Source: Lama glama
Lineage: Eukaryota
NCBI GenBank assembly: GCA_028534125.1
Contig: JAPYYK010000086.1
Coordinates: 4,216,001-4,280,000, forward strand
Direction of reading: 5' to 3'
Length of the DNA stretch: 64,000 nt
Position 1 is the first letter of the stretch. Each line of letters opens with the position of its first letter. The notes below the pieces were generated by a model that saw only the letters and a list, made by a program, of their open reading frames with translations, was not told where the DNA came from and made no database searches. Below, one piece after another: positions 5,080-61,593 of this stretch. The translations under genes and the position numbers were made by a program.

Positions 5080-6290
5080 GGATTTTTTTGAGGTCACATT
5101 CACTTCTAACATTGTATGTTTCATGTGTACAACATTCTGTTTCTATTTCTGCATACCCGAGAACATGCTCACCACCAAAAATTTATTATTGACCTCCCAG
5201 TCCCTTCCCCTCTGATAACCACTACTCTGTTCTCTGTATCTACGTGTTCCTTTTGATTTGGTTTGGTTTGTTGATTTATTTGGGGTCTTTTTGTTTGTTT
5301 ATTATTTTTTTATAGTCCACATATGAGTGAAATAATACAGCATTCATCTTTCTCCATCTGACTTACTTCACTTAGCATAAGGTCCACCCGTGTTGTTACA
5401 AATGGCAAGGTTTCATCTTTTGTTGGCTGAGTAGTACTCCGTTGTGTGTATATGTATACAGGCCTACACATACACACACCACATCGTCTTTATCCAGTCA
5501 TACATTGGTGGGCACTTAGGTTGTTTCCATGTCTTGGCTACTGTAGATATCTTTTCAGATTGGTGTTTTCATATTATTTGAATAAATACCCAGAAGTAGA
5601 ATAGCTGGGTAATATGGCAGTTTTCTTCTTATTTTTTGAGGAATCTCCATTATTGTCTTTCATAGTCACTGCACCAATTTACATTCCCACTAACAGAGGA
5701 TGAGAGATCCCTTTTCTCCACATCGTCATCAACACTTGTTATTTCTTGTCTTTTTATAACGGCCACTATGATACATGTGAGGTGATATCTCATTGTGGTT
5801 TTGACTTGCATTTCCCCAATCATTAATGATGCTGAACATCTTTTTATGTGCCTGTTGGCCATCTTCTTCAGGCAGCTTTTAAAAATGTCTGTTTAGCTCG
5901 TCTGCCTATTTTTTAATTGGGTGGTTTATTTTTTTGTTACTGAGTTGTATGAGTTCTTTATATATTTTGTATATAAACCTCGTATCGGATGTATCTTCCA
6001 CCGTTCAGTAGGTTGTCTTTTCATTTTATTTGCGGTTTCCTTGCTATGCAGAAGCCTTTTTGATGTAATCCCATTTTTTTTATGTTTTGCTTTTGTTTCC
6101 CTTGCCTGAAGAGACACATCTAGAAAGATACTTTGCTAAGACCAATGTCAAAGAACATACTAGCTTTTTTTTTCTGGGAGCTTTGTGGTTTCAGGTCTTA
6201 CATTCAAGTTTTTAAACTCTTTTGAGTTAATATTTGTGTATGGTGTGGGATAGTGGTCTAGTTTTATTTTTTTGCATGTGGCTGTCCAGT
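5080..6290 (-). mobile_element. L1 (L1MA9-like laurasiatherian) 3' end with degraded ORF2 C-terminus, nested in an older + strand L1ME fragment (~4840-5065 and ~6300-6560)
   Basis: Minus-strand ORFs 5650-5862, 5926-6117 and 6160-6348 translate to L1 ORF2-like peptides (MANRHIKRCSASL..MQVKTTMRYHLT; KMKRQPTERWK; [11 protein letters not shown]), with an L1 3'UTR on the left. Confidence 0.9.
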
Positions 6291-12831: not shown

Positions 12832-13014
12832 TTTTATAATAACTATAAATGGAGTTTACTTTTAAACATTGTGAATTACTCTATTGTACACCTGTAACTT
12901 ACATAGCATTGTACATTAACTCTACTTCAACATAAATCAATAATAAAAATAATAATTACAGTGGTCACAAACAAAAAAAAAACAAAAAAAAACAAAAAAA
13001 ACAAAAACAAAAAA
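12832..13014 (+). mobile_element. Short retroposed insertion: L1 3' tip, extra 3' sequence and poly(A), with a perfect 14-bp TSD
   Basis: AAAAACCTCCTCCA at 12818-12831 and 13015-13028; interior matches an artiodactyl L1 terminus (ataactataaatggagt...ttgtacacctgtaactt...attgtacattaactctacttcaa); AATAAA at 12942; A-rich tail from ~12969. Confidence 0.85.
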
Positions 13015-13309
13015 AAAAACCTCCTCCAGCCGGGACACCGCAGCTTCAAGTCTGAACTGACCAGAGGGCACGCATTTGCATTAGAATGACCCCCTGTTGC
13101 CAAAGTAAGTTGACTAGGTGAGATTCATATCTGTGTATCTCCATGGAAGCCACTCCCAGGAATCAGAGGTGCTTTTCTGCAAAATTGGGGAGTGTAAGTA
13201 CAAATGAAATGCTAGATGAGAAATTAGTTTGAAGGTCCTAACTACTACGCACATGCAGACTGCTAACATTTTCAGTAGATCCGGTCATATCCCACAGAGG
13301 CCAGTTTGC

Positions 13310-18085: not shown

Positions 18086-18163
18086 CTTATCTATGGTTCC
18101 CCATCAGTGTTTGTATTTGGGTTCTCGAGAGAAACAGAATCATCAGTGTGCGTGTATGTGTAG

Positions 18164-18366
18164 TTGTTGTTGTTGATATTGTTGTGTGTTTTTCTTGTTT
18201 TTAATTGAAGCTCCCTTACTGGTCCTGCTTCTGTGAGTGGCTGTGGCCGGGGGAAATGGGGAGGGGAATCAGGCAGCGCCAGGAGGGGTCATCTCCCCAA
18301 CATTCCATTTATTCACAGAGCTAGACAGACAAGCACAGAGTCACTGCTGCGGTTAGAAGTTGGCAG
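18164..18366 (-). pseudogene. CFL1: 5'-truncated processed pseudogene fragment of cofilin-1 (distal 3'UTR plus A-rich tail)
   Basis: Reverse strand reads CTGCCAACTTCTAACCGCAGCAGTGACTCTGTGCTTGTCTGTCTAGCTCTGTGAATAAATGGAATGTTGGGGAGATGACCCCTCC...GAAGCAGGACCAGTAAGGGAGCTTCAATTAAAAA, which I recognise from memory as the end of the mammalian CFL1 3'UTR, followed by a degraded A/CAA tail. Confidence 0.8.
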
Positions 18367-18697
18367 TTTTTAAAATGACGCAAATGAACTTATTTATGAA
18401 ACAGAAATAGACCCTCAGACACAGAAAACAAACTTTTGGTTATCAGGGAGGAAAAGGGGTGGGAAGGGATAAACTGGGAGTTTGAGATTTGCAGATACTA
18501 ATTACTATATGTAAGACAGATAAACAAGTTTCTACTGTGTAGCACAGGGAACTATATTCAATATCTTGTAGTAACCTATAATGAAAAAGAATATGAAAAC
18601 AATTATATGTACGTATATGTGTGACTGAAACATTACTCTGTACACCAGAAATTGAGATAACATTGTAAACTGACTACACATCAATTTAAAAAAAAAA
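18367..18697 (+). mobile_element. Artiodactyl/camelid-type L1 3' end with short poly(A)
   Basis: aaatgaacttatttatgaaacagaaatagac...gggataaactgggagtttgagatttgcagatac...tagcacagggaactatattcaatatcttgtagtaacctataatg...tgtacaccagaaatt...acattgtaaactgactac then A-tail. Confidence 0.9.
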
Positions 18698-19554
18698 CCT
18701 AGATAGCAGTTCATGTGATTATGGAAGCTGGGAAGTTCCACATCTGCTGTCTGCGATCTGGAGTAATAGGAGACTGGTGCTGTGTTTCGAAGGCCTGAGA
18801 GACGGAGACCCCGCTCCCCACCCGGTATATATTCCAGTCCAGGTCTGAAGACCTGAGAACTGAGAGCACGAAGGGCAGGGGAAGATGAATGTTACAGCTC
18901 AAGCGGTCAGGCAGGGCTAATTCAAACTTCTTCTGCCTTTTGTTCTATTCAGGCCCTCAGCAGATTGGGTGATGCCCTCCCACCCTGGGGAGAGCCATAT
19001 GGTTTACTCCGTCCACCGATTCAAATGCTAATCTCATCTGCAAGCACCCTCACAGACACGCAGAAGTTATGTTCCATTCGCTATCCGGGCATCCTCGGAC
19101 CCAGTCAAGCTGACACATAAAACAAACCATCACAGTGTTCTTGTTCGGGGGATGAACAGTATGAATCAGTACATGAATTAATGTGGAAGGAGAGTGTGTA
19201 CATGTTTTACAGTCCAAGGTAGCCTGTCTGTGGGGACAGTCCACGGTGACTGGAAGTGTATACCACGAATCTTAAAACCGAGCCTTTCTTGTACCGATCT
19301 GCTGGATGTATGCTCATCAGGTGGTTTATTCCCAATCTCATGCCGTTTCCAGGGAATTTTGCATTCTGCCAGAAAATTTATGTAAAAAAAAGGACCAGAC
19401 AGCATAAGTTATCTCTTGTATTTAGTGCTTTCGAATCATCCTGGATTTATTTACTCGTTTTTTCACTTCCTTCCCTCCTTCTTAAGCTCATCGTAAGGAG
19501 GTCTCATCCTATTTTAAACTGTTTTCAGCTTAAATGGAAACATTTGCCTGCTTA

Positions 19555-20975
19555 TCTTTTCTTTATTTTGAAGTAACATTGACATACAAGGTTATATTAG
19601 TTTCAGGTGTACAACATAATGATTGGACACTTGTGTACATCATGAAATGTTCACAGTAAGTCTAGTTGCCATCTGTCCCTGTACAGAGTTGCATGTTTGT
19701 TTCCTTATGATGAGAACTTTTCAGATTTACTTCCAAATTTAGAATACAGTATTATTGACTGTAGTCAGTCACCATGCTGTCTGTACATCACATCCCCATG
19801 ACTTACTTACTTTATAACTAGAAACTTGATTCCTTTCACCCTTTTTACCCATCCCCCAGCCCCCCCTTCCCTCTGGCAACTACCAATCTGTTCTCTATAT
19901 CTATGAGTTTTGTCTGTTTATTGGTTTGTTTTTTATAGTCTACATATAGGTGAAATCATAGGGTATCTGTCTGTCTCTGATTTATTTCACTCAGTATGAT
20001 ACTCTCAAGATCCATTCATGTTGTCACAGATGGCAGGGTTTCATTCTTTCTTACGGCTGCGTAACAGTTCGTCGTGTGTCTTTTTACCACATCACCTTTG
20101 CTTATTCACCCGTTAATGGCCATGTAGGTGGCTTTCATATCCTGACTGTTGTAAACAGTGCTACAGTGATCATAGGGGTGCACGTATCTTTTTGAATTGA
20201 TGTTTTCATTTTCTTCAGATGAATGCCCAGAAGTGGAATGGCTGGATTGTATGATAATTCTATTTTTAGTTTTTTGAGGAACCTCCATACTGTTTCCTAT
20301 AGTGGCTGCACCAGTTTACATTCAAACCAGTAGTGCACAAATGTTCCTTTTCTCTACATCCTTGTCAACACTTGTTATAACACCTGTCTTTTTGATCCTA
20401 GCCATTCCAACAGGAGTGAATTGGTGTCTCATTGTGGTTTTGATTTGCATTTCCCTGATGGTCAGTGATGTGGAGGATCTTTTCATGTACCTGTTGACCA
20501 TCTGTTGTCTTCTTTGGAAAAATGTCTCTTCAGATCCTCTGCCCCTTTTAAAATCAGATTGTTTGGGGGGTGGTTGTTGTTATTGACGTATGAGTTCTTT
20601 ATATAGTTCGGGTATTAACCCCTTGTTGGACGTACAATTAGCAAATACCTTCTCCCGTGCAGCAGGTTGCCCTTCAATGTTGTCGATGGCTTCCTTTGCC
20701 GTGCAGAAGCTTTTTAGTGTGATGTGGTCCCATTGGTTTATTTTTGCTTTTGTTGTCATAGACTTTGGAGTCATACCCAAAAAATATATGTTGTCAGGGA
20801 GCTTTCTGTCTGTGTTTTCTTCCAGAACCTTTATGGTTTCTGGTCTTACATTCAAGGTTTTCATCCATTTTGAGTTAATTTTTGTGTATGGTGTAAGACA
20901 ACGGTCCAGCTTTCCCGGTACCGTTTATTGACGAGACTGTCTTTTCCCCAGTGTATATTCTTGCCCGCTTGTCTT
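19555..20975 (-). mobile_element. L1 (L1MA9-like) 3' ~1.4 kb
   Basis: Minus-strand ORF 20580-20864 ([17 protein letters not shown]...[21 protein letters not shown]) and ORF 20106-20288 are L1 ORF2-derived; L1MA-type 3'UTR. Confidence 0.9.
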
Positions 20976-22100: not shown

Positions 22101-23439
22101 ATCCCGTGGGCGACCCGGAAGTGCAGCCAGCAGGAAGAGAAATTGCGCTCCTCTCTGTCCCCTAGCGGGTGCTCTCCCTTCAGGCTGCTGTGGGCATTTG
22201 TCTTTCCAGCTCCAAGACTCTTCCCACCCCATCTCTTCAAGTCCAAATCCATCCTTCACGTGCCTTTTCATAAAGCTTCCTGACCCCCCACCTCCTCTGA
22301 TGTCACCTTTTCCCCTCCTGCTTCCTCTTCTTTTCCCTGGAAGACACACAGCCATTGACCCGGAGCTCCGTGAGGACCAGAGGCATCTTCCCAGCACCTT
22401 TGTTATAGTCACAGTGGCAGTGGCAGCGTCCAGGGGTATTAGGTGCTGTGTAAACGCTAGGTGATGAGCGAGGCAGAGAGAAAGGAAAAGGTGAAATGAG
22501 GGGAGAAGAATGAGCGCCAGAGAGAGAAGAGGCAGGTGGAAAGTAAGAACAGAAAAGCATACAAAAGGAGCATCCCGGCCGCCCCCCCCCCCAAGAGGGC
22601 CAAGGAAGGGAGGATTGGGGGGGGGGAAGGAAAGGCGGATTGGAGGTAGGTGACTGTGGTTTTCCCTCTGCAGTGGCTGCTGCCAGCCAGTAACTGGCTC
22701 CTACAGCTCTTCAGTGGGATCTCTGCTGGCATAAAGCCGCTCTGTGTAAACAGTATCCCTGTGTGGTCATCAGAGAATGTGCAATAGGCTCTCTGTGTGA
22801 GCAAACGTATAATAGACTCTCTGATGCAGTTGCCGCTCAGACCCCCTGGCTCTTTCTGTGTGCTGCTCTAATGAAATCGCAGAATGCCTTAGAACTGGGA
22901 CCCCTGGAGTGACAGTGTTGGAAGGGATGGAGCGGGGAGGAGTAAGTCCTTCTGAGGTTCATGGGCTCTGGGGTGATGACCCCCTCCACCATCACCCCTG
23001 GACGCAGTCAGCCGCGGCGTCCGTGGAGGTCATTCTCGCCGTGGTGCTCACTCACAGTTCTGGTTTTTCCCTCACTTACACTTTATAGCTGCTGCTGCCT
23101 GTTTTCTCTAAAAGGTAGATTTGGGGAATTTTTATCTCTTTTCAGCCGTCTTGTTAGAATTTAATAATCCACTTCCAGGAGTGTCTCTGCCAGAGATTTT
23201 CATTACTTGATGTCCAAAGCAGCTGCTGGAGAGGTCCTGATAAGGAAGGTGGAGGCTGGGTGTCGCGAGGGACAGGAGAGTGGCAAACTCCTCGATTCTC
23301 CTCCTGGGCGCCCAGCTGTCTGGAGCTCAGGACTGAACCTGCAGACTTCAGAGACAGCTGTTCATGAAATGAGAAGGGGCCTTGCTCGCAAATTTTTCCA
23401 TATCAGCCTTTTGTTCTTTTTTTTATTTCAGAGTTATTT

Positions 23440-23520
23440 ATCTTTTCTCAGTTGAAGTACAGTCAGTTTACAATGTTGTGTCAATTTCTTGTGTACTGCG
23501 TAACATGTCAGTCATACATA
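23440..23520 (-). mobile_element. Camelid-type L1 extreme 3' tip
   Basis: ttgaagtacagtcagtttacaatgttgtgtcaatttcttgtgtac...cagtcatacata, the same family as the 18367-18697 element. Confidence 0.7.
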
Positions 23521-23669
23521 CTGTTCTTTGTTCATTGAAGGATCGTGAACAAAGGTAAAAGCTCAGCATACAAATGCTTTGAGATAAGAGACATGGTTTG
23601 ATGTCCTGCGAAGTGCTCAGTCTCACACTATAGACTTTACAGCCATTAGGTGCTGTAAGTTAATCCCTG

Positions 23670-35971: not shown

Positions 35972-36214
35972 GGAGTGAGCAGAAGACATCATTATAGTTC
36001 TACAGAAACAAAAATCTTTCGAAGGCAAAGTAAGAGTTTTAGGAAATTAACAGGGTAGATGAGGCGATGGTTGCTGGGGTGAGTGGATGGGGGAGTGAGC
36101 AGAAGACATCATTATAGTTTTACAGAAACAAAAATCTTTCGAAGGCAAAGTAAGAGTTTTAGGAAATTAACAGGGTAGAAGATGGTTGCTGGGGTGAGTG
36201 GATGGGGGAGTGAG
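35972..36214. repeat. Tandem duplication of 120/115 bp
   Basis: Copy 1 at 35972-36091 and copy 2 at 36092-36206; GGAGTGAG occurs at 35972, 36092 and 36207. Confidence 0.95.
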
Positions 36215-60130: not shown

Positions 60131-60738
60131 GTACGTACTGTTGTAGCAGATCTGGTGTGATAGAGACATACACTTACCTGTGGATAAAAGTCCCTAGAAA
60201 CAAATGGTTGGTTTTACTGTTACTGGATGTCACCCCACATGAGAAGTTGTGGACAAGGACGTGGGCTCCTTGCCAGTGGATCGAGGGTCTTAGCTGTAAT
60301 TTTAAAGCAGTTTGATACTATGTCTATGACTGGTTATAATTCTGTGCAGTTACTGGTTGCCCTCCTTCGTCTTCACTGGCAGTGGAGCCATCACAGTAGC
60401 TCTCACTCTGTCCCACTAGGTCCCGGGAGTTACTTAACACACTGACATTTTACACTTGTGTTTGTGCTCTTTGTACAGAGAGGTGTTTAGCTTAGAGTAT
60501 TTGGAACTTAAAAAATGCTCTTGAATTTGTATGCGATAGATTCTTCACAAAAAATTTAGAAACTCTACATCTAAGAGTCACAAATTGACGTCAGTGTGGG
60601 GTCCCGATCACCCCGAGCTCACTGTTCAAGTGCTGGCCCCTCGGGGTTCTCGCTGCTGCTCCGCTCCTGCGTCTTCCGCGCGTGTTTCTGGCCCGAGTCG
60701 GCCGCGCCGCTGACGCCGCGCTGTGTGCTCCCCTCCAG

Positions 60739-60941
60739 TACCTGGGCGCGGACATGGAGGAGTTTCACGGCAGGACGCTGCACGACGAGGACAGCTGCCC
60801 GGTGATCCCGGTGCTGCCGCAGGTGACGATGATCCTGATCCCGGGGCAGACCCTGCCCCTGCAGCTCTCGCGCCCTCAGGAAGTCAGCATGGTGCGGAAT
60901 CTGATTCAGAGGGACAGGACCTTCGCGGTTCTGGCTTACAG
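60739..60941 (+). CDS. CRBN: Cereblon coding exon 3 ([67 protein letters not shown]), start of the Lon-N-like domain
   Basis: Branch-like CTGAC at 60710, acceptor ctcccctccag|, donor AG|gtaaca; 203 nt, phase 0 to 2. Confidence 0.97.
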
Positions 60942-61593
60942 GTAACACCTAGCCCGAGCTGGCTTCACAGTCTCTGTCGTGCAGTCACGGCTGAGGTCGT
61001 GAGGGCCAAAACGGACTGCCGTTTCACGTGCGCAGGAGACTGGACAAGGGTGGGGAGGGACGAAAAGTTTGAAAGTGCAAGTTGGAGTGTTTTGTTGTGA
61101 TCGTTACCGTCTAAATCAAACATTTACTTTCACATGCAGTTAACTTTCTGGTATTTGAAAGGTTTTATATCATTATTTAAGGAAAAACATTTCCAGACTC
61201 TTATTTTACAGTGTAATGTAAAGGATTACTTTTACAAAGGAGTGACTTGTTAATTTCTCAGTCCCAAAACCCTGAGTTGTCCTGTACAGACCAGTGGTAT
61301 ATGGAAGCTGAATTTCACGTGTCCTCAGACAGCTAGAGGAATTCAGCAGTGGAGGCAGGAACTCGATACAGGAAGTCCCTGCCGCAGTGCAGTGCTGCCG
61401 ATAAGGGGCAGAAGTGATGGGCTTCGGACGCAAAGCATGTCTGGTTTGGGAAATGACAGTTTAAACCCCTGTCAGTCCTGGATCATTTTCAGTGACTAGA
61501 AATCTCTTCTTTTCCTAATGAGCCCTAATTACACTTCCTGACGCCTCTATATATCTCAATTCCCTGAGTGCTTTTTAAAATAAAGAAAAATAG

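Follow-up and report, generated by a model that had tools for sequence, protein, structure and literature searches.

Joined copies of two different RNAs in opposite orientation have been described in several settings. For inverted U5/L1 chimeras, twin priming on two RNAs was proposed (Doucet et al. 2015, PMC4476161). In the data of Law & Burns 2026 (PMC13174262), 2 of 17 mRNA/L1 chimeras are antisense and, of 452 Alu/L1 chimeras, 83.2% or 88.5% (the paper's text and legend disagree) are sense; opposite orientation is ascribed there to twin priming, and a cross-species test separates sequential from chimeric insertion. Nine two-RNA insertions were recovered in cells, the opposite-oriented ones being explained as ligation of two RT-extended ends (Mendez-Dorantes et al., PMC11702581), and a 5'-5' junction between two 5'-truncated L1s, both of them poly(A)-tailed, has also been reported (Zumalave et al., bioRxiv 2024.08.27.596794). 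In the consulted sections of PMC13174262, PMC4476161 and PMC11702581, discrete TSDs flank the whole insert of twin-primed or chimeric insertions; for 5'-truncated insertions, short target deletions (0-20 bp) with microhomology are typical (PMC11702581). The first-pass annotation of the present locus had taken it as established that twin priming uses one RNA and that chimeras are co-oriented, a premise that omits two-RNA twin priming and 5'-5' joins of RT products, both already described. No orientation terms were found in the consulted part of Table S5 of PMC13174262. Our literature search returned no paper on the llama locus or its window motifs and, in the literature examined, no TSD-less, two-tailed germline mRNA/L1 case, and the supplements of bioRxiv 2024.08.27.596794 and PMC11702581 may hold closer cases.

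The locus lies in a 64,000-nt stretch of llama DNA, hereafter the window. Its host element is an interrupted LTR on the minus strand (18112-19134), with TG...CA ends at 19134..18112 and a 5-bp TSD, GTGTT, that is exact at both flanks (left copy 18107-18111, right copy 19135-19139). To the left of the insert stand 52 nt of the LTR 3' end (18112-18163, minus), whose CA terminus adjoins the TSD, and to the right the 425-nt 5' part (18710-19134, minus), with its TG start at 19134. The terminal dinucleotides and 5-bp TSD are those of an MLT2-type solo LTR, and we take the family to be MLT2. A solo LTR with intact GTGTT TSDs, split by an insert, had been annotated at first pass, and the exact TSD copies and TG...CA ends bear this out. 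Relatives of the LTR were found neither elsewhere in the window nor in phages, plasmids or viral contigs; two-motif scans for such relatives gave 28 + 4 loci, and 0 of these 32 matched the LTR region by BLAST. The first-pass annotation put a putative loss of expected LTR sequence at the insert at ~25-30 bp. A 10-nt exact repeat at 18102-18161 (copies 39 nt apart, 76% over 21 nt), of which one copy overlaps the left LTR TSD and the other falls inside the LTR, is probably due to chance.

The insert spans 534 nt (18164-18697) and consists of copies of two different RNAs that run in opposite directions and meet 5' to 5' at 18366/18367, with a T5 run. The head-to-head architecture is real: the 5'-5' join at a T run, noted at first pass, is seen in the sequence, and so are the outward-pointing A-rich ends, namely an A/C-rich tract on the minus strand (18164-18204) for the CFL1 piece and an A run (18688-18697) for the plus-strand L1 end.

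The left piece is a 5'-truncated retrocopy of the CFL1 3'UTR (18205-18366, minus), assigned by cDNA match over 18286-18366 and presumed over 18205-18285. The cDNA is a contig (L001), the sole one found with a 20-nt window motif in a metagenome collection. Its 166-aa frame matches Pfam Cofilin_ADF and is closer to solved cofilin-1 (E about 1e-105) than to cofilin-2 (1e-87). Against the 3'UTR of this cofilin-1 cDNA, 18286-18366 is identical at 69 of 81 positions (E 3e-20), the match ends at 18366, and a copy of an mRNA 3' end, as in a processed pseudogene, is thereby identified. The contig departs from the CFL1 UTR at window position 18286, short of the mRNA 3' end, and CFL1 is therefore tool-confirmed over 81 of the 203 nt only; the rest of the 203-nt left piece is presumably CFL1 as well. 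The original assignment of all of 18164-18366 to CFL1 thus stands for the matched segment and is presumptive for the remaining nucleotides. At the 3' end of the piece, the A/C-rich tract (27 A, 9 C, 4 T and 1 G of 41) may be what is left of a decayed tail, an A-rich end belonging to the mRNA itself, or both, and the left junction has no clear endonuclease site. The cDNA contig itself is a patchwork, with a repeated cofilin coding piece at one end and unrelated sequence in place of the UTR 3' end at the other, which is either an assembly artefact or a cDNA chimera. In viral contigs, the CFL1 motif gave 0 matches, and a search for cofilin protein gave 9 pattern matches, of which 0 were confirmed.

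The right piece is a 5'-truncated L1 3' end with a 10-nt A tail (18369-18697, plus), its 5' edge lying somewhere in 18367-18372. It combines an intact A-tailed 3' end with 5' truncation, as in canonical L1 TPRT, and shares 81% identity with another copy in the window (23443-23520; 78 nt compared), which has an A tail and is flanked by a TSD. We take both to be camelid-type L1 3' ends; the L1 3' motif has 0 matches in viral contigs. Endonuclease-independent insertion (NCLI) was considered for the L1 piece and rejected: it requires a 3'-truncated L1 without A tail, and an A tail is present here. Membership in a spliced mini-L1 family seems unlikely, as no L1-type head was seen in front of the piece.

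Other repeats in the window were noted in passing. The second L1 end belongs to a minus-strand element (23412-23532) in which an L1-type 3' end of about 55-80 nt is followed by ~25 additional nt and an A tail, and it is possibly a mini insertion with a short 3' extension. Two related old repeat fragments (5548-6265 and 20185-20913; 69% over 749 columns) resemble old L1. Directly behind an older L1-like 3' end (12875-12936) lies a 51-nt A-rich tail with C interruptions (12967-13020), and a tandem duplication with a unit of ~120 nt occupies 35972-36214 (94.5% over 128 columns).

No TSD was found round the pair as a whole: the best candidate is 6/7, a score reached by 164 of 400 nulls, in agreement with the first-pass annotation, and a TSD could be hidden by decay or deletion. 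The further claim that neither piece has a TSD does not hold cleanly. The L1 by itself is flanked by a 9/11 repeat, in which 18358-18368 (the end of the CFL1 piece together with two bases of the T run) matches 18701-18711, and an exact 8-mer of low complexity, a T/A run, brackets the CFL1 core (18197-18204 = 18366-18373). Read as a TSD of the L1, the candidate left copy would be 18355-18368 (plus; the 12 terminal nt of the CFL1 piece and two T; 9/14 overall) and the candidate right copy, decayed, 18698-18711 (plus; 9/11 ungapped, or 11/14 with a 3-nt gap). The two T that follow the CFL1 end are common to both candidate copies and absent from the cofilin-1 cDNA. When random window sequence replaces what follows the tail, the 9/11 repeat is reached by 28/1500 and 24/1500 nulls under two scoring settings, and with the left side randomised its sequence score is reached by 45/2500. 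The three tail-adjacent bases (18698-18700) are mismatched, so that 9/11 needs 3 nt of slack; a copy forced to start in or at the tail scores 9/14, reached by 303/1500 nulls, and free local alignment of the repeat is reached by 571/20000 (20 nt) or 1134/20000 (24 nt).

The repeat is in register with an endonuclease-type site. On its diagonal, the base immediately following the L1 tail falls on 18355, where a plus-strand TT/AGAA site at 18353-18358 would be nicked (nick before 18355). Sites of this class occur at 229 of 63995 window positions, and Table S5 of PMC13174262 gives TT/AGAA as the site of cleavage in 2 rows. Repeat score and site jointly are reached by 0/2500 nulls (exact register), 1/2500 (+-2) and 8/2500 (-10..+3), the weight of the site being conditional on the TSD being real. 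These TSD tests are post hoc, having been designed after the match was seen, and covered three layouts.

With a candidate TSD, decayed and flanking only the L1, in the TT/AGAA register, the sequence points to two successive insertions. The parts, their orientations, the repeat and the site are observed; from them we consider it somewhat probable that the CFL1 retrocopy came first and that the L1 later landed inside its 5' end, leaving a TSD of about 14 bp that has since decayed. Under nested insertion, the L1 machinery would have reverse-transcribed the terminal ~200 nt of CFL1 mRNA into the LTR, and the short cDNA would have been joined to the right-hand LTR end via microhomology, leaving no TSD and probably removing a little of the target. 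The L1 would then have entered the other strand by target-primed reverse transcription at TT/AGAA, ~14 bases inside the CFL1 5' end, duplicating ~14 nt across the old CFL1/LTR junction. The right TSD copy would since have decayed, and the T run at the junction would represent the end of the left copy plus the first bases of the L1. At 14, the implied TSD length agrees with the discrete TSDs of 12-18 bp in PMC11702581. The junction provides a further comparison: just past the cut, parent CFL1 agrees with 18712-18719 in the right part of the LTR at 7/8 positions (1441/20000 nulls), a weak match because the comparison relies on CFL1 from a distant mammal; the match across the cut is reached by 479/20000 nulls, and the match to the L1 start is 3 nt only (17005/20000). 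This pattern is weakly suggestive of a CFL1 end that first adjoined the LTR directly and was subsequently copied in the TSD of the L1. Against nesting, the 7/8 junction match alone is not significant, the left junction of CFL1 lacks a clear endonuclease site, and the second L1 end has a better-preserved TSD than the main L1, 10/11 and right at its tail (23412-23422 / 23522-23532). The CFL1 piece differs from the cDNA at 12 of 81 columns, an upper bound on its divergence, and the two L1 ends diverge by about 19%, values that do not decide the order of insertion.

The first-pass annotation proposed a single event on two RNA templates, in which both ends of a break were extended, one on L1 RNA and one on CFL1 mRNA, and the cDNAs were joined 5'-5', either by two-template twin priming or by RNA-templated break repair. 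Such an event would involve a small target deletion, with CFL1 primed at its tail or A/C-rich end. The parts and orientation on which this interpretation drew hold up; the candidate TSD round the L1 alone favors successive insertions instead, and we regard the single event as unlikely, though not negligible. Opposite orientation, A-rich ends that point outward and a pair without TSD all fit it, the non-canonical left junction of CFL1 would suit secondary priming, and the strict tail-start test of the L1 TSD falls short of significance (303/1500, as above). The mechanism is, moreover, already in print (PMC4476161, PMC13174262, PMC11702581, bioRxiv 2024.08.27.596794). Two features find no explanation under it, however: the sequence following the L1 tail is similar to the CFL1 end, in the TT/AGAA register, and parent CFL1 runs on into the right part of the LTR instead of the L1. 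Published twin-primed inserts, as described in PMC11702581, retain TSDs of 12-18 bp, whereas this pair has none; the rows seen of Table S5 in PMC13174262 likewise carry TSDs of 9-17 bp, in a catalogue that was itself selected for TSDs. One specific form, a germline fossil of RNA-templated break repair in which both ends of a break with a small deletion were extended from the 3' A-rich ends of two RNAs, CFL1 mRNA and L1, and the products ligated head-to-head without TSD, we hold to be rather unlikely.

The reverse order, with the L1 first and a CFL1 cDNA entering afterwards, draws on the 8-mer that brackets the CFL1 core. The CFL1 cDNA would have gone into the T/A run at the L1 5' end, with a 6-bp TSD at a perfect TT/AAAA endonuclease site (minus strand, 18373-18368), or just to its left, with a deletion that took the left TSD of the L1; L1-mediated deletions without TSD are known (PMC7058536). 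Both the exactness of the 8-mer and the perfect site speak for this order, but the 8-mer consists of a T/A run, 6 bp would be little for a TSD, no account is given of 18164-18196 or of the 9/11 repeat, and the L1 is left without a TSD. CFL1 also probably has an A run of its own at the position of the 8-mer, which we count against an L1-first order, and overall we find that order improbable. Still less probable, in our estimate, is a later deletion that fused two independent, longer neighbors, each once with its own TSDs, by removing both 5' ends: it would account for the absent TSDs and any lost LTR bases without a special mechanism, yet it would require three events within a single small LTR and has no explanation for the repeat that follows the L1 tail.

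The CFL1/L1 pair lies ~42 kb upstream of a cereblon exon (60712-60942, plus), whose frame (60589-60945) gives a weak Pfam LON_substr_bdg match and an E of 2e-35 against solved cereblon, and which can serve as an anchor in locating orthologous loci; a Pfam scan of 43 of the 111 long frames in the window gave 2 matches, one of them real. The locus is probably an old, inert fossil, and a single old locus has little importance in itself. It does carry a caution: nested insertions with a decayed TSD can mimic a two-template mRNA/L1 pair, and since nested insertions can yield head-to-head pairs, TSD position and cross-species presence should be checked before a two-template call. Should orthologs show the pair to be a single event, a class invisible to TSD-based catalogues would gain a germline member without TSD, and a fossil of break repair, if that is what it is, would be the inherited counterpart of junctions from induced cells and tumors.

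Under the nested or the single-event reading, the pair belongs to a kind that is already described. As in the sequential retroposon insertions of PMC13174262, an RNA-derived piece adjoins the 5' side of an L1; those insertions are told apart by TSD position and species presence, whereas here the TSD criterion is used alone, on a decayed repeat. As in antisense RNA/L1 chimeras (PMC4476161, PMC13174262), an opposite-strand copy of a non-L1 RNA stands at the truncated 5' end of an L1, but the reported chimeras lie within one TSD and the present pair has no spanning TSD; their snRNA/tRNA partners are, in the cases described there, mostly 3'-truncated, whereas the partner here comes from the 3' end of an mRNA and terminates in an A-rich tract. 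Head-to-head RT products are shared with the two-RNA insertions and 5'-5' L1 bridges (PMC11702581, bioRxiv 2024.08.27.596794), of which the tumor bridge is likewise poly(A)-tailed on both sides; those cases are somatic or induced and this one comes from an assembled genome, and the tumor bridge links sites 2.67 Mb apart (bioRxiv 2024.08.27.596794), whereas both flanks here belong to one LTR. The lack of a TSD and the candidate short homology at the 5' junction recall 5'-truncated pseudogenes with microhomology-mediated target deletion (PMC11702581, PMC7058536), from which the locus differs in a left junction without clear endonuclease site. Endonuclease-independent L1 insertions (Sen et al. 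2007, PMC1920257) also have no TSD, with target deletion and occasional capture of another RNA, but they are 3'-truncated, and the L1 here keeps its 3' end and A tail. The germline cases examined are TSD-bounded, and a local, TSD-less, two-tailed mRNA/L1 form, as a fossil of break repair would be, was not among them.
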